Of a stretch of 64,000 bases of DNA, positions 35,446 through 49,087 are shown piece after piece. Origin of the DNA: an uncultured Candidatus Rokubacteria bacterium (GTDB lineage Bacteria > Methylomirabilota > Methylomirabilia > Rokubacteriales > DASRDR01); contig CAWGVS010000005.1 of the NCBI GenBank assembly GCA_963826115.1, positions 1,376,001-1,440,000 of the forward strand. The letters are read 5' to 3'. The translations under genes and the position numbers were made by a program. Every line of letters begins with the position of its first letter. The stretch's first letter is position 1. Below the pieces are notes generated by a model, which saw nothing but the letters and a program-made list of their open reading frames with translations, ran no database searches and was not told the DNA's origin.

Positions 35446-36378
35446 TCAGGCGCCGAGCCGCCCTCCGCGCACTCGGGCGCGGGGGCCGGTCAGGAGCCGG
35501 CGCACGTCGGCCGCGTACGCGACCTCGCTGTCGTCCGCCGGCGCATAGCCGAGAACGCGCCGCGCGCTCTCGAGGGACCAGAAGGCGCGCGTGTTGCCGC
35601 TGATCCCGTAGACCACGAGCCACGGCACGCCGTCGGCGTTCCGGACGTCCCGGGTCTCGATCGCACGCCGGACGACCTGCCGGAGGTCGCGCGGGGACAG
35701 CCACGCGCCGAGATCCCGCTTGAAGTTGGCGAGCCCCGACGCCCCGGGGGCGACGTGCTGCTCGACGAGCTTCCCGAGGTAGCGGCGCCCCGACACGTCG
35801 CGCGGCGCGCCGATGCGGAGCAGCACTACCTCGAGCTGGCGGCCCAGGCTCCCCGACGCGTAGACGAACCCGAGCAGCTCGTACGCCGCCTTCGACCAGC
35901 CGTAGAAGTTGTCGGACAGCGGGAGGTCGTCAGGTGACACGAGGTCCTTCCGGCCGCGGTGCACCAGGGTGTGCTCGTACCAGTCGGCGGCGTGGTTCGA
36001 GCTGGCCGCCACGACGCGCCGCACCTTGGCGTCGAGCGCGCTCCGGTAGACGTTTTGGGCCATGCGGACGTTGGCGAGCTCACCGTCGAAGGTCTCGAGC
36101 GCGCCCGGATCGGCGCCCCAGACCCCCGTCGTCTTGACGTTGGGCGGCCGGTAGCCGAGGTGGAGAACGGCGTCGGCGCCACGGAAGAAGCGCGCGTAGC
36201 GGTCCCGATCCGGATGGGTGAGGTCGGCCACCTCGACGCCGGGCACCCGGCGGCCGCGCCGATCCGTCGGTCGCACGTCCACCAGCCGGAGCGCGTAGCG
36301 CCGCCGGAGGTCCGGCAGGAGCTGGGCCGCCACGTAGCCGCTCGCCCCCGTCACCAGCACGGTTTTCCGTCTCGCCAT
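35446..36378 (-). CDS. NAD(P)-dependent epimerase/dehydrogenase (uronate dehydrogenase-like)
   Basis: TGASGYVA, ASSNHA, YGWSK, W.SPRDL, YGISGN; GGAGG RBS. Confidence 0.87.
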   Translation of the reverse strand: MARRKTVLVTGASGYVAAQLLPDLRRRYALRLVDVRPTDRRGRRVPGVEVADLTHPDRDRYARFFRGADAVLHLGYRPPNVKTTGVWGADPGALETFDGELANVRMAQNVYRSALDAKVRRVVAASSNHAADWYEHTLVHRGRKDLVSPDDLPLSDNFYGWSKAAYELLGFVYASGSLGRQLEVVLLRIGAPRDVSGRRYLGKLVEQHVAPGASGLANFKRDLGAWLSPRDLRQVVRRAIETRDVRNADGVPWLVVYGISGNTRAFWSLESARRVLGYAPADDSEVAYAADVRRLLTGPRARVRGGRLGA

Positions 36379-36432
36379 GGAGTCCTCCCGTCCGGCATTC
36401 TCCCACGGGCCGCGGTGTACAATCGGCCCGTC

Positions 36433-37893
36433 ATGGCGCAGGCCGTCTTCCTCCAGACCTACGGCTGCCAGATGAACGAGCGGGACTCCGAGGAGATCCT
36501 CGGCATGCTCACCGCCCAGGGCTACGCCGTGGTCGACCGCGAGGAGGAGGCCGACGTCATCCTCCTGAACACGTGCTCGGTCCGCGCCCACGCCGAGGAG
36601 CGCGCGTTCGGGAAGATGGGCCTCATGCAGAAGCTCAAGCGCGAGCGCCCCGCTCTCGTCCTCGGCATCCTCGGCTGCATGGCCAAGGCGCAGCGCGAGG
36701 AGGTGTTCCGCCGCCTCCCGCAGGTCGACCTCGTCGCCGGGCCGGCGGAGATCTACGACCTGCCCGACCTCCTGGCGGGCGTGGCCGAGCGCAGGCAGCG
36801 CGCGGGGCTCGGCGGCGGCGCGCGCGTGCTGGCCGTCGACCGCAAGGTGCGGCCGCTCGACCGCCGACCGGCGACGGACTACCGGGCGGGCGAGGTCACG
36901 GCCTTCGTCACGATCATGGAGGGGTGCGACAAGAAGTGCGCCTACTGCATCGTGCCGACGACGCGCGGTCAGGAGGTGTCGCGGCCGCTCGACGAGATCC
37001 TCGACGAGGTCCAGCACCTGGCGCGCGCCGGCTACCGGCAGGTGACCCTGCTCGGGCAGAACGTGAACTCCTACGGCAAGCGCTTCCCCGACGGCTCGGG
37101 GTGGGTCGGTCCCGGCCGGCGACGGGCGCTCCTCCAGCTGTCGGCTCGCCCCGACGTCGCCGCGGACGCCGGCGAGGCGGATGCGAGCGGGCCCCGGCTC
37201 GTCGACTTCCCCGCCCTCCTGCGCGCGATCGACGGCAAGACCTCCATCGGCCGGGTGCGCTTCACGACCAGCCACCCGTTCGACGCCCACGAGGAGCTGT
37301 TCCAGGCGATGGCGGAGTGCCGGAGCGTCTGCGAGTTTCTCCACCTGCCGGTCCAGTCGGGCTCCGACCGCATGCTGCGCGCGATGCGCCGCGGCTACAC
37401 GGCCGAGAGCTACCTCGGGCAGATCGCCCGCCTCCGGGAGCTGGTGCCGCACGTCGCCCTGTCGACCGACATCATCGTGGGCTTCCCCGGCGAGACCGAA
37501 GCGGACTTCGAGGCGACGCAGGCGCTGATGGAACGCGTCCGCTACGACAGCGTGTTCGTCTTCAAGTACTCGCCGCGGCCCGGCACCGAGGCGTCCAGCT
37601 GGGCCGACGACGTGCCTCAGCCCGTCAAGGAGCAGCGGAACCAGGCCATCCTCGCGCTCCAGGCTCGGATCTCGCGTGAGCGGCTCGACACGTGGATCGG
37701 CCGCGAGGTCGAGGTGCTGGTCGAGGAGCGGAACCGCCGCGGCCAGCTGACGGGCAAGAGCCGCCGCAACACCACCGTCGTCCTCGAGGGCCCCGACGCG
37801 CTCATCGGGGAGCTGGTACACGTCCGGGCGAGCCGGGCCACCGACACGACCCTCGTCGGCGACCTCCTGGACCACGCCGCGCGGGTCCTGTGA
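36433..37893 (+). CDS. miaB: tRNA-2-methylthio-N6-isopentenyladenosine synthase
   Basis: TYGCQMNERDSE, NTCSVR, GCMA, EGCDKKCAYCIVP radical-SAM motif, HLPVQSGS, TRAM C-terminus. Confidence 0.96.
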   Translation: MAQAVFLQTYGCQMNERDSEEILGMLTAQGYAVVDREEEADVILLNTCSVRAHAEERAFGKMGLMQKLKRERPALVLGILGCMAKAQREEVFRRLPQVDLVAGPAEIYDLPDLLAGVAERRQRAGLGGGARVLAVDRKVRPLDRRPATDYRAGEVTAFVTIMEGCDKKCAYCIVPTTRGQEVSRPLDEILDEVQHLARAGYRQVTLLGQNVNSYGKRFPDGSGWVGPGRRRALLQLSARPDVAADAGEADASGPRLVDFPALLRAIDGKTSIGRVRFTTSHPFDAHEELFQAMAECRSVCEFLHLPVQSGSDRMLRAMRRGYTAESYLGQIARLRELVPHVALSTDIIVGFPGETEADFEATQALMERVRYDSVFVFKYSPRPGTEASSWADDVPQPVKEQRNQAILALQARISRERLDTWIGREVEVLVEERNRRGQLTGKSRRNTTVVLEGPDALIGELVHVRASRATDTTLVGDLLDHAARVL

Positions 37894-39642: not shown

Positions 39643-40836
39643 TCAGACGACGCCGCGGGTGCGGAGGTCCTCGATCTCGGCCGGACCGTAGCCCGCCTCG
39701 CGCAGAACCTCCGCGGTGTGCTCGCCCAGGAGCGGCGGCGGCCGGTCCAGGCCCGGGCTGCCGTGCGCGAAGCGGAATCCCGATCCGACCAGCCTGAGCG
39801 GGCCGAACTGCGACTCCACGGTCTGCAGCACGTCCCGGTGCTCGAGCTGCGGGTGGCCGACGATCTCGTCGATCTTCCAGATCGAGGAGCACGGCACGTC
39901 GGCCTTCGTGAGCCGCGCCTCCCAGGTCCGGGCATCCGCGCTCGCGAGCGCGCTCTCGATGACCTCGCGGAGCGCCGGGAAGTTCGCCGTGCGCGACGCC
40001 CAGTCCTTGAAGCGCGGGTCGTCGAGGGCCTCGGGGAGCCCGAGGGCCGTCATGAGGCGCACCCACTGCGGCTCCGTCAGGACCGCCAGGACGAGGAAAC
40101 TGTCCTTCGCCCGGAACCGGTTGGCGGTGGGCTTCCGGCTCACCGAGCCGTTGCCGATCTGCCGCTGCTCGATACCAGCCACGGTCCACTCCGAGACCGG
40201 CCCCGGAATGAAGGCGAGCGCGGCGTCGAGCATGGCCACGTCGACGAACTGTCCGACCCCCGTGCGCGTCCGCTGGTAGAGCGCGCTCGACACGGCGAGC
40301 GCCGCGGTCAGGCCACCGATCGTGTCGCAGATCGCGAACCCCGCGCGCATCGGCCCACCCGCCGGCTCCCCGGTGATCGACATGATCCCCGACATCGCCT
40401 GGAGCTTCCCGTCGAAGGCCGCCGTGGTCTTCTCCGGGCCGGTGTGGCCGAAGCCGGACACCGCGCAGTAGATCAGGCGGGGATTCACGCCCGTGAGCGC
40501 CTCGTAGCCGAGGCCGAGGCGGTCCATCACGCCGGGCCGGAAGTTCTCCCAGACCACGTCGGCGCTCCCGACGAGCCGCCGCACCACCTCCACCGCCTCC
40601 GGCCGGCGAAGATCGAGCGTGATGCTGCGCTTGTTGCCGTTCACGGCGAGGAAGCCGGGCGGCATCCCGCGCGCGGCCAGCTCCGTCACCACGGGCTGGG
40701 CCCGCGTCTCGTCCCCCTCCCGCGACTCGATCTTGACGACGTCGGCGCCGAGGAGGGCGAGCTGGTAGGTACCGTATGGCCCGGCGAGGTAGCGGGTGAA
40801 GTCCAGGATGCGGACGCCGGCGAACGGCCTGCTCAC
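39643..40836 (-). CDS. CaiB/BaiF (family III) CoA-transferase
   Basis: GVRILDF, AGPY, LGADVVKIE, NGNKRS, ENFRPG, catalytic Asp region QAMSG, PPLLGEHT; GTG start overlaps upstream stop. Confidence 0.93.
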   Translation of the reverse strand: MSRPFAGVRILDFTRYLAGPYGTYQLALLGADVVKIESREGDETRAQPVVTELAARGMPPGFLAVNGNKRSITLDLRRPEAVEVVRRLVGSADVVWENFRPGVMDRLGLGYEALTGVNPRLIYCAVSGFGHTGPEKTTAAFDGKLQAMSGIMSITGEPAGGPMRAGFAICDTIGGLTAALAVSSALYQRTRTGVGQFVDVAMLDAALAFIPGPVSEWTVAGIEQRQIGNGSVSRKPTANRFRAKDSFLVLAVLTEPQWVRLMTALGLPEALDDPRFKDWASRTANFPALREVIESALASADARTWEARLTKADVPCSSIWKIDEIVGHPQLEHRDVLQTVESQFGPLRLVGSGFRFAHGSPGLDRPPPLLGEHTAEVLREAGYGPAEIEDLRTRGVV

Positions 40837-41741
40837 TTGCGGTCCGACTTGCCCGCGATGACGGCCTTGACCTCGTCGAACTCCCGCCGCTTCTCGGCGA
40901 GCTCCTCGGTCGTCATGCGGTCCGGGTTCGAGTAGTCGAGCTTCCAGGACGGGTCGTCGCTCCAGCGCTGCGGAGACTGCACGGTCGTGCGCGGCGCGGG
41001 CGCGGTCTCGAGGACGCGGAGCGCGAGCTCGAGCGTCGCCGCCTGCGACTCGGCGTCGAACGGCTTGCCGGCGGAGTTCCCCAGCGGGAAGTCGCTGAAG
41101 AGGAAGCGCGGCACCCCGCAGTGCTCCACGATGTCCTTGGCGGCCCCCATGATCACGGTGGGGACGCCGTTCGCCTCCAGGTGGCGGGCGACCAGACCGA
41201 CGGTCTGGTGGCACACGGGTCAGGTGGGCACGATCAGCGCGACGTCCGCCCCGTCCTCCCGGCACCGCGCCAGGAGCTCCGGCGCGTCACGCTCGACCGT
41301 GACCCGCTGGCTCCGGTTGGTCGGCGAGCCGTAGAAGCGCGGCGTGAGCGCCCCGATGCGCCCGGTCCGGACCGCCTCCTGGAGCCGCGCGAGCGGGAAC
41401 CACGTGTTCGGGTCTTCGGCGCGAGTGTGCTTCCGGTCGTAGCCCACGTGGGAGATCCGGAGGTCCGGAACGGCGTCGGTCGAGTCCGCGTAGACCGAGT
41501 AGAACTTGGCGGCGGCGTTGTACTTCGCGCCCGGCCCCTGGTCCCCCCGGCCGGGCTGGTAGGGCGCCGCCGTCGTGACGAGCGCCAGGCGGGACCGCGC
41601 CAGCGGCTTCGCGAGCGGCGTGAACGGCACCTCGTCGAAGTGGGCCCACCGGTACGGGTTGTCGAAGCCGAGACGAACGTAGTAGTCGCGGGTCCGCTGC
41701 ATGTAGGAGATCGGGACGTCGTGGTCGGGCGCGAATCTCAT
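40833..41741 (-). CDS. Selenoprotein of the glycine/betaine/proline reductase selenoprotein B (GrdB/PrdB) family, 302 aa with Sec at UGA 41220-41222
   Basis: ORFs 41220..41741 and 40833..41216 are in the same frame; readthrough gives LIVPT-U-PVCHQTVGLVARHLEANGVPTV; N-terminal ALVTTA, SHVGYD, DPN..FPL motifs. Confidence 0.9.
41191..41219 (-). promoter_or_regulatory. Bacterial SECIS element
   Basis: Hairpin ACCAGACC-GUC-GGUCUGGU begins after a 10-nt spacer 3' of the UGA, with G-U in the apical loop. Confidence 0.78.
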
Positions 41742-41822
41742 CGGCGTCTCTCCCGGGTGCCCTCGCCGGTCACCGCGTGGCGCCAGTGTCGCACGGAAGC
41801 TCCCGCGGGCGGAGGGTCCGCG

Positions 41823-44609: not shown

Positions 44610-45527
44610 ATGATAGACGTCGCCCTCTTCCCCGCCTTCGAGACGCTCCTGGCGGTGGTCCGCACGGGCTCGGTCGCCGGCGCGGCGCGCCAGCGCCACA
44701 TCACCTCCTCGGCGGTCAGCCAGCAGATCCGCCGCCTCGAGACGCACTTCGGGATCAAGCTCTTCGAGCGCGCCGGCCGCGGCGTCCGCCTGAGCGCGGC
44801 CGGCGAGGCTGCGCTGCCCGTGGTGCGGGAGCTCTGGACCGGGGCCGAGACCGCGTTCGCGCAGCTCGCCGAGCTGGCCGGCCACCCCGCCACCACGCTC
44901 CGCGTCGCGGCGAGCGACTACCTCGGCAAGGCGCTCCTGGCCCCCGTCCTCCGGGACCTCCTCGACCAGGAACCGTCCGTGCGCTTCGAGATCGTCACGG
45001 CCCACTCGCGCGAGGGCGTCCGGCTGGTGGCGCGCGGCGACGTCGATCTCGCGGTGGTGACGGGGCAGGACACGCCGCGCGGCCTCGAGGACCGCCACCT
45101 CTTCGACCAGCCCTTCGTCTGGGTGGGCCCACGGCGGCGGGGGGAGCCGGCCGCCCTGACCGAGCGGCTCCGCCGCGAGCCGATCCTGCGGCTGGCCGCG
45201 GAAAGTCGCGGGCGCGCCCTCCTCGACCAGTTCCTCGCCGACGCGCGGATTCGCCCGGTGTCCACGATCGACGTGCCGAGCGTGTCGCTCCTGCTCTCCT
45301 ACGTCTCGGGCGGGCTCGGCATCGGACTCGTCCCCGCGCTCGCGCTCAGCGAGGCGCCGGCCGACCGCACGGTCAGCGCGCCCGCGGCCGTCCCCGCCCT
45401 CCCCGTCACCCTGGTCTGGCGCCCCGCCGCCCAGCGTCAGCCCGCGCTCGCCCGCCTGGCCGCCCTCCTTGCCGCCGCGGGAGCGCGGGCGGGGGCACGG
45501 CTCCGCGGCCGGGGTCGGGCTTCTTAA
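44610..45527 (+). CDS. LysR family transcriptional regulator, divergent from leuCD
   Basis: GSVAGAA...[20 protein letters not shown] helix-turn-helix; VDLAV; GLGIGLVP. Confidence 0.92.
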
Positions 45528-45585
45528 CAATTCCGCCTCGGCGCGTCACAATGCGGGACATGCGCGAACCTGAGGCCCCGACCCG

Positions 45586-46518
45586 ATGACCTGGCTCACC
45601 GAGACCGAGCGCGACCCGCGTCCCGCCGGCGACCGCCTCGCCGCCCTCTGGGCCGAGCCCGGCATCCTCGGGCTCCCGGGGGCCCACGAGCCCCTGGCCG
45701 CGCTCCTCGCGCGGCGCGCCGGCTTCCGAGCGCTCTACGTCTCCGGAGCCGGGCTCGCCGCGAGCCTCGCGCTCCCCGACCTCGGGATCCTCTCCCTCGG
45801 GGAGCTCGCCTACTTCACGCGCGCGATCGTGCGCGCGTCGGGGCTGCCGGTCCTGGTCGACGGCGACACCGGCTACGGCGAGGTGCTGAACGTCGTCCGC
45901 CTCGTGCGCGAGCTCGAGGACGCGGGCGCGGCCGCCGTGCAGATCGAGGACCAGATCCTCCCCAAGAAGTGCGGCCACCTCTCGGACAAGCGCCTCGCGT
46001 CGCCCGAGGAGATGGCGCGGAAGGTCGCCGCCGCCGTGCGGGCCGCGCGCCACCTCCGGGTGGTCGCGCGGACGGACGCCGTGGAGCTCGAGGGGATCGA
46101 TCGCGCGATCGCCCGGTGCCGGCTCTACCGCGAGGCCGGCGCCCACGCGATCTTCCCGGAGGCGCTCCGGACGGCGGAGGAGCTCCGTGCCTTCTCCGCG
46201 GCGGTCCCCGGGCCGCTCCTCGCCAACATGACGGAGTTCGGCCGGACGCCGCTCGCGCCAGCGGCGCAGCTCGAGCGCCTCGGATACAAGATGGTGATCT
46301 GGCCCGTGTCCGCCCTCCGGGTCGGCGCGCGCGCCATGGAGGGCTTCTACGCCGACCTCGCCCGCACGGGCACGCAGGCGGGATGGCTCGACCGCATGCA
46401 GACGCGCCGCCAGCTCTACGAGCTGATCGGCTATCACGACTACGAGGCCCTCGACGAGACCATCGCGAAGAGCGTCCTCCCCGACGAGCTCCCGCCCCCC
46501 GGCCGTGGAGGCGCATAG
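45586..46518 (+). CDS. prpB: 2-methylisocitrate lyase
   Basis: YVSGA, LPDLG, DGDTGYG, IEDQ..PKKCGH, ARTDA, NMTEFG.TP, MQTR..LY. Confidence 0.93.
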   Translation: MTWLTETERDPRPAGDRLAALWAEPGILGLPGAHEPLAALLARRAGFRALYVSGAGLAASLALPDLGILSLGELAYFTRAIVRASGLPVLVDGDTGYGEVLNVVRLVRELEDAGAAAVQIEDQILPKKCGHLSDKRLASPEEMARKVAAAVRAARHLRVVARTDAVELEGIDRAIARCRLYREAGAHAIFPEALRTAEELRAFSAAVPGPLLANMTEFGRTPLAPAAQLERLGYKMVIWPVSALRVGARAMEGFYADLARTGTQAGWLDRMQTRRQLYELIGYHDYEALDETIAKSVLPDELPPPGRGGA

Positions 46519-48025
46519 GGTCCGGGTCCACCCCGCGGCGTCGCGCCTGCCGCGCGAGGCGCAGCTCGCCTGGAAGCTCGCCGCCTTCGCGACCCGGGCG
46601 CCGGCCTCCGGCGTCGACCAGGACGTCGCCGAGATGGTCGCCTGCCGCGTCGTGGACAACGCGGCGGTGGCCCTCGCGGCGCTCGACCGGCCGCCCGCGG
46701 CCGCGGCGCGGTCGATGGCCCTCGCCCACCCGCGCCCGGGAGGCGCGACGCTGATCGGCCTCCCGGGCGATCGGACGGTCCACGCGGAGTGGGCCGCCTG
46801 GGCGAACGGCACCGCGGTCCGCGAGCTCGACTTCCACGACACCTTCCTCGCCGCCGACTACGCGCACCCCGGCGACGGCATCCCGCCCCTCGTCGCCGTC
46901 GCCCAGCAGAAGGGGCTCGACGGCGCGCGGCTCCTCGCCGCGATCGCGGCCACGTACGAGGTCCACGTGGACCTCGTGAAGGCCATCTCCCTCCACGCCC
47001 ACAAGAAGGATCACGTGGCGCACCTCGCGCCGGCGATCGCGGCCGGGCTCGGCGCGCTCCTCGGCCTCGAGACGCCCGTCGTCTACCACGCGGTCAACCA
47101 GGCGGTGCACCTCGCCTTCTCGACCCGCCAGTCGCGGAAAGGCGACATCACCTCCTGGAAGGCCGCGGCCCCCGCGTGGGCGGGCAAGCTCGCGATCGAG
47201 GCGACGGACCGCGCGATGCGGGGCGAGGGCGCGCCGAACCCGATCTACGAGGGCGAGGACGGCGTGATCGCGTGGATGCTCGGGGGGCCGGACGCCGAGT
47301 ACGTCGTCCCGTTGCCCGCGCCCGGAGAGCGCCCCCGCGCGATCCTGGAGACCTATCCGAAGGCCCACTCGGCGGAGTACCAGGCCCAGGCGCTGATCGA
47401 CCTCGCGTTCGACCTCCGGCGCCGCGTCGCGTCCGGGGACTGGCCCCGCGTCCGCGAGATCCTCGTCCGCACGAGCCACCACACGCACACCGTGATCGGG
47501 TCCGGCTCCAACGACCCGGAGAAGCTCGACCCCGACGCCTCCCGCGAGACGCTGGACCACTCGATCATGTACATCCTCGCGGTGGCCCTCGAGGACGGCC
47601 GCTGGGACCACGTCGCCTCCTACGCGCCGGCGCGCGCCCACCGGCCTTCGACCGTCGCGCTCTGGCGGAAGATCCGCACCGTCGAGGACCCCGCCTGGAC
47701 CGCGCGCTATCACGACCCCGACCCCGCGCGAAAGGCGTTCGGCGGCCGCGTCGAGATCGCCTTCGAGGACGGCACGATCGTGAGCGAGGAGCGTCTCGTG
47801 GCGGACGCCCACCCGGCCGGGCGGCGTCCCTGGCGGTGGCCGGACTACCTCGGGAAGCTCGACGCGCTGGGCGGCGATCGCTTCCCCAAGGACGAGCGCT
47901 CGCGGTTCGTCGATCTTGCGGCTCGCCTCGGGCGCCTGTCGCCCGCCGAGGTGCGCCGGCTCAATCCCGCCCTGCCCCCCGGCGCCCTCGGCCCGCAGGA
48001 ACCCGACGGCCGCGGCATCTTCTAG
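46505..48025 (+). CDS. prpD: 2-methylcitrate dehydratase (MmgE/PrpD family)
   Basis: RELDFHDTFLAA.Y.HP, DHVAH, RQSRKG.I.SWK, SRETLDHS. Confidence 0.92.
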   Translation: MEAHRVRVHPAASRLPREAQLAWKLAAFATRAPASGVDQDVAEMVACRVVDNAAVALAALDRPPAAAARSMALAHPRPGGATLIGLPGDRTVHAEWAAWANGTAVRELDFHDTFLAADYAHPGDGIPPLVAVAQQKGLDGARLLAAIAATYEVHVDLVKAISLHAHKKDHVAHLAPAIAAGLGALLGLETPVVYHAVNQAVHLAFSTRQSRKGDITSWKAAAPAWAGKLAIEATDRAMRGEGAPNPIYEGEDGVIAWMLGGPDAEYVVPLPAPGERPRAILETYPKAHSAEYQAQALIDLAFDLRRRVASGDWPRVREILVRTSHHTHTVIGSGSNDPEKLDPDASRETLDHSIMYILAVALEDGRWDHVASYAPARAHRPSTVALWRKIRTVEDPAWTARYHDPDPARKAFGGRVEIAFEDGTIVSEERLVADAHPAGRRPWRWPDYLGKLDALGGDRFPKDERSRFVDLAARLGRLSPAEVRRLNPALPPGALGPQEPDGRGIF

Positions 48026-48133
48026 CGGCTCCGCGAGACGGCCGCCGCTGCCCGGCGGCTCGGCTGCGGTAGAATGGCACAAGTGCAAAGCCTGACAATG
48101 TCGGTGGACTCTCCAACGGAGGGGGGGCTTCTC

Positions 48134-49087
48134 ATGAGAATCCGCAAGATCGGACTCCTCGCGCTCGTCGCCCTCGCGCCGCTCCTGGCGCTGGCGGCCG
48201 AGCCCATCAAGATGATGGTCCCCGCGAACCCGGGGGGTGGCTGGGACTCCACCGGGCGCGCCGTCCTCGCGGCGCTCGAGGCCGAGGGGATTCACAAGGC
48301 GGGCGCCCAGGTCACGAACAAGGGCGGGGCGGGCGGCACCATCGGTCTCGCGGAGTTCGTCAACGGCTCGAAGGGCAACGACAACGCGGTCCTGGTGATG
48401 GGCGCAATCATGGTCGGCGGCATCCTGACGAACAAGTCGCCGGTGACCCTCGACCAGGTGACGCCGCTGGCCCGGCTGACGATCGAGTACAACGCGATCG
48501 CCGTCGCGCCGAACTCGCCCTTCAAGACGGTGAAGGACCTCACCGACGCCCTCAAGGCGGACCCGGGTAAGGTGTCCGTCGGCGGCGGCTCGGCCGGTGG
48601 CGTCGACCACATCACGCTCGCCCTGATCGGGCAGGCGGCCGGCGTGCCCGCGGCGAAGCTCAACTACGTCCCGTTCCAGGGCGGAGGCGAGATGATCGCC
48701 GCCGTCGCCGGCGGGAAGCTCGCCGCGGCGATCTCGGGCCTCTCGGAGTTCAAGCAGTACGTCGACACCGGGCGGCTGCGCCTCCTGGCGGTCACGTCGG
48801 ACGCGCGCCTGGCGGGCGTGAGCACGCCCACGCTGAAGGAGTCCGGCGTCAACGTCGTGATCGGCAACTGGCGCGGCCTGGTCGGCCCGCCGGGCATGTC
48901 GGCCGGGGGTCGCTCGGCCATGGTCGCGATGCTGGACAAGATGCATCCCACCAAGGCCTGGCAGGAGACCCTCAAGAAGCAGGGGTGGGACGACGCCTAC
49001 CTCTCCGGCGAGGCGTTCAGCGGGTTCCTGAAAGAAGAGAACGTGCGGATCGCCGCCGTGCTCAAGGAGGTCGGTCTCGTCAAGTAG
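48134..49087 (+). CDS. tctC: Tripartite tricarboxylate transporter substrate-binding protein
   Basis: [30 protein letters not shown]. Confidence 0.92.

Follow-up and report, generated by a model that had tools for sequence, protein, structure and literature searches.

The DNA considered here, which we call the window, is a stretch of 64,000 nucleotides from an uncultured Candidatus Rokubacteria bacterium (assembly GCA_963826115.1, contig CAWGVS010000005.1, positions 1,376,001 to 1,440,000), and its minus strand carries a gene of the PrdB/GrdB superfamily whose reading frame is interrupted by a TGA (Table 1). A listing of open reading frames (ORFs) shows this gene as two pieces in the same frame, one of 173 aa (41220..41741) and one of 127 aa (40833..41216). 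A preliminary description of this DNA had claimed that the two are a single frame split by one TGA, and direct translation of 41741..40833 confirms it: the frame runs from an ATG at 41741-41739 to a terminal TGA at 40835-40833, and the TGA at 41222-41220 is its sole interruption. With that codon read as U, the product has 302 residues and reads ALIVPT-U-PV-C-HQTVGLVARHLEANGVPTV around the interruption. A hairpin lies just beyond the TGA, and the stop codon of the gene overlaps the start codon of a gene for a coenzyme A (CoA) transferase. We propose that the TGA that splits this PrdB-like gene is almost certainly a selenocysteine (Sec) codon, at which, we infer, Sec is inserted by way of a conserved RNA hairpin.

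Table 1. Features of the probable selenoprotein locus, in coordinates of the window
Feature	Position	Strand	Details
PrdB/GrdB-superfamily selenoprotein gene	40833..41741	minus	302 codons and TGA stop; PF07355; homologues of about 70% identity can be aligned from residue 1 through to the last
Putative in-frame Sec codon (UGA), U174	41220..41222	minus	residue 1 of U-P-V-C; column is TGA or Cys in relatives
Codon TGC for Cys177, putative resolving Cys of UxxC	41211..41213	minus	C177 invariant in the homologue alignment
Candidate selenocysteine insertion sequence (SECIS) hairpin	41188..41212	minus	core stem ACCAGACC (41209-41202) and GGUCUGGU (41198-41191), loop GUC (41201-41199), two outer pairs
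Shine-Dalgarno-like GGGAGAG	41748..41754	minus	6 nt upstream of the ATG; from sequence inspection alone
Family III (CaiB/Frc-type) CoA-transferase gene	39643..40836	minus	PF02515, E = 2.9e-113

The preliminary description had predicted that homologues would carry either Cys or Sec at the column of the TGA, and this is exactly where they do. All 23 aligned full-length database homologues (64-84% identical, about 300-340 aa) have Cys at this position, within an invariant C-P-V-C-H-Q. A search of 61 genomes from the same order, one of them the window's own, gave a match at E <= 1e-20 in 34; 55 of the 56 matches listed contain exactly one TGA, and the sole one that has none is a contig-end fragment covering residues 3-140 only. 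We fetched 30 loci (L026-L055), namely the window's own gene and 29 relatives whose protein identity to it ranges from 90% down to 39%, and in every one of them the TGA occupies the identical column and is followed by P-V/I-C-H-Q; L048 (genome G055) is among the 30, and the conclusions are unchanged without it. A scan of species-representative genomes added 80 loci and, once 3 duplicates were removed, left 107 distinct genes, 48 with TGA and 59 with Cys at the column. An independent set of 80 metagenome contigs divides into 60 with TGA and 20 with Cys. The UGA hence aligns with Cys or UGA in homologues and is followed by conserved coding sequence, the pattern by which Sec genes are recognized.

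The close TGA-bearing relatives are assigned to Candidatus Rokuibacteriota/Methylomirabilota, and further TGA forms occur in Reyranella, Vineibacter, Stellaceae and uncultured Alphaproteobacteria, while the Cys forms come mostly from Bradyrhizobium and Acetobacteraceae. In the window's own genome, the search found only one GRDB-family gene (32.9 bits). Several other genomes of the order (G031, G039, G041 and G030) each have three PrdB/GrdB-like paralogues with a TGA, which share 33-50% identity with the window protein.

A perfect 8-bp hairpin with a GUC loop had been reported to follow the TGA after 10 nt, and this is borne out by both sequence and fold. It starts 10 nt past the A of the UGA, and the minimum-energy fold adds two outer pairs, G41212-C41188 and C41211-G41189. 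We checked it, one rule at a time, against the bacterial SECIS (bSECIS) model as given in the legend of a 2026 review, which specifies a loop of 3-9 nt, a stem of 4-16 bp, a distance of 16-37 nt from the UGA, a minimum free energy of -7.5 kcal/mol or below, and a G at loop position one or two, usually with G or U after it (PMC13188914). The hairpin falls inside this bSECISearch model throughout: the loop has 3 nt and begins with G followed by U, the stem has 8 bp, the distance from UGA to loop is 18 nt, and the free energy of the 26-nt hairpin segment is -15.2 kcal/mol. It differs from most relatives in its GUC triloop, since a CGUGA pentaloop is found in 38/51 of them and, in the metagenome set, in 47/60. 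An Rfam scan of 40700-41800 gave no relevant family match, and none that covers the hairpin.

Taken alone, the hairpin is modest evidence and suggestive at most. The window has a G+C content of 72% and holds 43 perfect 8-bp stems with loops of 3-9 nt per strand, the chance expectation being about 0.015 such stems at the permitted distance after any one UGA, and the 66-nt fold has a z of only -1.9. The weight therefore rests on conservation in the TGA-bearing relatives. In the genome set the inner six pairs are intact in 47 of the 48 TGA genes as against 1 of the 59 Cys genes, and in the metagenome set in 59/60 as against 0/20. The codon for the Ser that is paired in the stem is AGT in all 41 TGA genes of the genome set but in 3 of 33 Cys genes (30 use AGC), and in the metagenome set in 48/48 and 1/11, respectively; at other positions of the TGA genes, AGT accounts for only 3.6% of the 911 Ser codons. 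Where the stem residue is Gly, the TGA genes use GGT in 5 of 7 cases in the genome set and in 12 of 12 in the metagenome set. Across 45 distinct TGA sequences 95.1% of cells pair, compared with 22-33% when the partners are slid, and two divergent paralogues have changed the stem on both sides, to AUCAGUCC/GGACUGAU and to a G-U variant. In L212, the nearest Cys form that was found, with 81% identity over 221 residues, the stem sites read GGC and ATC and the stem is gone. This pattern of conservation indicates that the hairpin is under selection specifically in the TGA genes and is not a mere by-product of coding.

The preliminary description had named the Sec decoding machinery as something to be sought in the genome, and all of it is there. 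The assembly, in 12 contigs, is 99% complete with 5.3% contamination; it contains selA (576.5 bits), selB (347.8 bits) adjoining it, a gene for tRNA-Sec with the anticodon tca (76.9 bits) 1.2 kb from selA, and selD (393.2 bits) with one in-frame TGA, so that selA, selB, selC and selD, four of four, exceed their curated cut-offs. The loci of selB, selA and tRNA-Sec (L001, L003 and L018) are clustered within about 4.6 kb at G000:C8:81424-86039, outside the window. Also outside the window is selD (L011, G000:C5:561687-562604), whose in-frame TGA suggests that the selenophosphate synthetase is probably itself a selenoprotein.

The protein had been linked to GrdB and PrdB, and the link stands at the level of the superfamily. 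PF07355 (GRDB) matches residues 26-171 with 33.2 bits against a gathering cut-off of 22, and the UxxC motif is present. This match spans model positions 202-345 of 347 and stops three residues before Sec, where the model probably ends because its own seed proteins were cut at their UGA. Identity with either enzyme did not hold up. The best NCBIfam match is indeed to PrdB (TIGR04483, residues 40-256 to model positions 20-230 of 238, E = 6.3e-28), but at 97.8 bits it remains far below the equivalog cut-off of 300 bits; the selenoprotein B subfamily model TIGR01918 gives 43.9 bits against a cut-off of 65.45, and the models for GrdB, GrdF and GrdH rank after PrdB and are also below cut-off. Nor was a pyruvoyl partner or GrdA found: PF09338 (GrdE/PrdA) had no match in the 99%-complete genome or among the neighbours, and PF04723 (GrdA) had none in the genome, in searches that are unvalidated, the control genomes having no matches either. 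We hence assign the protein, on its profile matches, to a stand-alone PrdB-like branch that is neither GrdB nor PrdB proper.

In an AlphaFold model built on a 24-row alignment (mean predicted local distance difference test score, pLDDT, 80; predicted template modelling score, pTM, 0.83), U174 comes right after a strand (167-171), at the start of a helix (175-190). The junction of strand end and helix start is the usual site of CxxC-type redox pairs. A profile search of the PDB returned no hits at E <= 1, and a Foldseek search with the model returned none at E <= 0.001. VIA-align recovered only generic three-layer alpha/beta folds, of the kinds seen in LacI/periplasmic-binding proteins and short-chain dehydrogenases; the best had a Z of 10.5 across 142 residues, with a root-mean-square deviation of 4.5, and none provides a functional lead.

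Along the minus strand, from upstream to downstream, the genes are leuC-like, leuD-like, an alpha/beta hydrolase, the selenoprotein and the CoA-transferase. The GTG start of the transferase (40836-40834) overlaps the TGA stop of the selenoprotein gene by 4 nt (GTGA). The transferase is closest to succinate-glutarate, formyl-CoA and mesaconate CoA-transferases, with all NCBIfam equivalogs below cut-off; the leuC-like and leuD-like genes exceed theirs. Among the 44 TGA loci with at least 300 nt of downstream DNA, 35 have the transferase directly downstream on the same strand, with the 4-nt overlap in 26 of the 35, and so do 26 of 59 Cys loci; one further gene in each set has it elsewhere in the locus. 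In contrast to the transferase, the other neighbours hardly recur (the alpha/beta hydrolase in 1/109 loci, leuD in 3/109), and Pfam domains searched for in 135 ORFs taken from 10 loci revealed no shared gene besides the transferase. This synteny suggests a functional link between selenoprotein and transferase. In the metagenome Cys form L212 (L212:3-665), the CoA-transferase gene is still directly downstream despite the decayed hairpin. We rejected four apparent fusions (P0243-P0245 and P0263, 712-739 aa, closest to the transferase) as artefacts of gene calling that show adjacency only; in P0244 and P0245, a recognizable PrdB-like N-terminal part passes out of frame into the transferase.

The family to which the window gene belongs is an already published one, in print since 2005. 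In the accessible portions of two surveys, the UxxC protein called “proline reductase PrdB” is the third most abundant selenoprotein family of the Sargasso Sea, where it has 42 Sec genes (Zhang, Fomenko & Gladyshev 2005, PMC1088965), and 235 Sec and 110 Cys genes in the Global Ocean Sampling (GOS) data are assigned to pfam07355 (Zhang & Gladyshev 2008, PMC2398784). “Proline reductase” selenoproteins have also been listed for Anaeromyxobacter, Geobacter and an Olavius symbiont (PMC1794560, PMC1976440), and the available part of the 2026 review mentions a Methylomirabilota metagenome-assembled genome with 63 predicted selenoprotein genes (PMC13188914). As far as those portions describe the environmental family, the window protein has the same properties: pfam07355, Sec as the first residue of UxxC, many Cys homologues, and an origin in non-clostridial, largely aerobic communities. 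It is by this family definition, and not by sequence, that we compare the two and count the window gene as a member. The preliminary description had called the selenoprotein hidden, which is true with respect to ORF callers but not, on the evidence of the accessible 2005 text, with respect to the literature (PMC1088965).

The window gene nonetheless departs from these marine catalogues in coming from a soil-type lineage related to Methylomirabilota/Rokuibacteriota, and their accessible portions make no mention of a CoA-transferase partner (PMC1088965, PMC2398784). Our literature search found no paper on the PrdB-like branch or on its pairing with a CoA-transferase, although the supplements of the 2005 and 2008 papers may list this gene type.

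We would also make the distinction between this protein and the reductases for which its superfamily is named. In Clostridioides difficile PrdB, according to the part of the source available, Sec151 attacks D-proline at its alpha carbon while the substrate is bound to PrdA's pyruvoyl group, and a U151C variant does not reduce D-proline (PMC11229817). PrdB is the best family-level match of the window protein, U174 falls at about the model position of Sec151, as judged from match offsets, and for both a selenolate attack resolved by a nearby Cys is proposed. Unlike PrdB, the window protein is extended by about 40 residues at the N-terminus and 45 at the C-terminus, a search for an accompanying PrdA found none, and Cys forms are common in its family, whereas PrdB U151C is inactive. 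With GrdB, GrdF and GrdH it shares a PF07355 match above the gathering score, which corresponds to the second half of GrdB up to just before Sec; it differs from GrdB in being without the first ~200 GrdB residues, in scoring below the TIGR01918 cut-off, and in that neither GrdA nor GrdE was found.

At the UGA (41222-41220), the ribosome would meet the hairpin (41212-41188) at a distance of 10 nt downstream; the apical loop, which contains G-U, is 18 nt away from the codon. As in established bacterial Sec decoding, the hairpin would recruit SelB with Sec-tRNA(Sec), and Sec would be inserted in place of termination. Sec174, at the N-terminus of a helix, would pair with Cys177 as a U-P-V-C redox pair. 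By analogy with PrdB and GrdB, the selenolate may attack a carbon of the substrate; Cys177 would then resolve the adduct, leaving a selenenylsulfide to be re-reduced by a thiol system. Given that no pyruvoyl subunit or GrdA was found and that the only neighbour both conserved and translationally coupled is the CoA-transferase, we infer that the enzyme probably shares a pathway with the transferase and has as its substrate a carboxylic acid in the form of a CoA thioester, and that it does not serve the Stickland reduction of proline or glycine.

It is also conceivable, if rather unlikely, that the two enzymes form a module in which the transferase supplies a CoA thioester that stands in for the pyruvoyl group as electron sink or activating group for reductive cleavage at the alpha carbon. 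In such a module a 2-substituted carboxylic acid (amino, hydroxy or similar) would be loaded onto CoA by the transferase and would lose its alpha substituent through displacement by the selenolate, and Cys177 would release the reduced acyl-CoA, with the selenenylsulfide remaining. Were this speculation true, pyruvoyl-independent reductive C-X cleavage would be widespread in soil Methylomirabilota and Alphaproteobacteria.

The distribution of the two forms bears on which of them is older. A quick maximum-likelihood tree (LG+G4, with branch support from the Shimodaira-Hasegawa-like approximate likelihood ratio test, SH-aLRT, only) was made from 106 of the 107 genes, one gene of fewer than 220 residues being excluded, and was rooted on two divergent TGA paralogues. 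TGA forms are basal and occur throughout Methylomirabilota, and several further TGA groups lie in Pseudomonadota; within the TGA forms sits one large Cys clade of 55 rows with a support of 98, and at least four state changes are required. Three Cys genes (L124, L074 and L187) have the rare AGT and a nearly complete stem, which may be a fossil SECIS left by a change from Sec to Cys. Because of the nested Cys clade and of these retained stems, the data fit a history in which Sec is the older state and Cys replaced it later, on a rooting that is not secure. The Cys-form gene of L090, labelled Frankia sp. RB7, lies inside the Bradyrhizobium clade on a branch of 0.024, and its contig is probably a contaminant or mislabelled.

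Several other interpretations of the interrupted frame must be weighed against Sec. A Cys codon (TGC or TGT) might have mutated to TGA, leaving a dead gene, or might have been misread in an assembly that consists of 12 contigs and has some contamination; the change from TGC takes one base, and close Cys forms are known (P0003, 84% identical, as well as L212). Yet this TGA is found again in 48 distinct genes from genomes and in 60 metagenome contigs, with an intact and conserved frame downstream of it. A sequencing error, the possibility raised in the preliminary description, or a dead gene is therefore excluded, and we hold that the conserved TGA in effect refutes this explanation. The site is also spanned by contigs from three DNA runs, each belonging to a different study, and none of the differences listed falls at 41220-41222 or in the hairpin, which adds weak support. 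Hardly more credible is a reassigned code in which UGA stands for an ordinary amino acid (Trp or Gly, codes 4 or 25). An in-frame TGA by itself does not discriminate between such a code and Sec, but this gene itself terminates at TGA, like 76 of 107 related genes, selA, selB, the CoA-transferase and other genes are free of internal stops under table 11, and the TGA is confined to the column equivalent to Cys.

The UGA could also be a true stop, separating a 173-residue N-terminal protein from a 127-residue protein that begins at GTG 41216. Both pieces do appear in the ORF listing, and the Pfam GRDB match does end at residue 171, close to the supposed terminus. However, the pieces lie in a common frame and can be aligned gap-free with single Cys homologues of about 310 residues, the invariant C/U-x-x-C pair would be separated, and the conservation of residues 175-302 is explicable without any start signal; the end of the Pfam match, as noted, probably reflects seed proteins cut at the UGA. 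We consider two separate proteins very improbable. Only slightly better placed is the view that the gene encodes the B subunit of a genuine Stickland-type D-proline or glycine/sarcosine/betaine reductase. PrdB and then GrdF, GrdH and GrdB are its top NCBIfam matches, and the accessible part of the 2026 review tabulates the same UxxC motif for PrdB and GrdB (PMC13188914). Against this stand the shortfalls from the PrdB and selenoprotein B cut-offs, the failure to find PF09338 or PF04723 in a 99%-complete genome, with the reservation that the control genomes gave neither, and a neighbourhood of CoA-transferase, alpha/beta hydrolase and leuCD in place of prd or grd genes.

We thus favour a 302-residue selenoprotein of the PrdB/GrdB superfamily, with hairpin-driven Sec insertion, that shares a pathway with the CoA-transferase and does not take part in Stickland reduction, and we would put the probability of this joint reading at roughly 0.93. 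Some observations weigh against parts of it. TGA and Cys genes fall for the most part in different clades, and so the contrasts between them are not independent counts; the contrast in codon usage within the same TGA genes holds regardless of this separation. Covariation is thin, as 5 of 9 pairs never vary and both-sided changes are seen in two pairs, for a total of 3 cells. The peptide H-Q-T-x-S/G-L-V is conserved across the two forms, and for that reason the stem's outer half (CACCAG/CUGGUG) pairs in many Cys genes as well. A single RNA run was found (share 0.04), and it yielded no sequence that could be placed. PrdB U151C is inactive and yet Cys forms abound here, so that the chemistry may differ from that of PrdB. 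Finally, the transferase is absent beside 8 of the 44 TGA genes and 32 of the 59 Cys genes, and with no real fusion found either, the functional link is suggested and nothing stronger.

Two other parts of the window were noted. On the plus strand at 44637-49087, divergent from the operon, lie genes for a LysR regulator, the methylisocitrate lyase prpB (381.7 bits against a cut-off of 354.4), a PrpD-family dehydratase and a TctC-type receptor, which together form a methylcitrate or organic-acid cluster. At 35959-37893, also on the plus strand, is a MiaB-like methylthiotransferase with UPF0004, radical SAM (S-adenosylmethionine) and TRAM domains.

For annotation, the implication is that the two ORF fragments should become one merged selenoprotein gene, and the same correction applies to dozens of related genomes, given that 55/56 of the matches listed in the order carry the TGA. 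For the biology of the family, the analysis offers handles on the function of a PrdB-like selenoprotein family that is abundant in oceans and soils: no pyruvoyl partner would be needed, the gene is tightly coupled to a dicarboxylate-type CoA-transferase, and Sec is apparently the older state. Its function should be testable, since the carriers include cultured and genetically tractable bacteria, namely Bradyrhizobium, which has Cys forms together with the transferase, and Reyranella, which has Sec forms.

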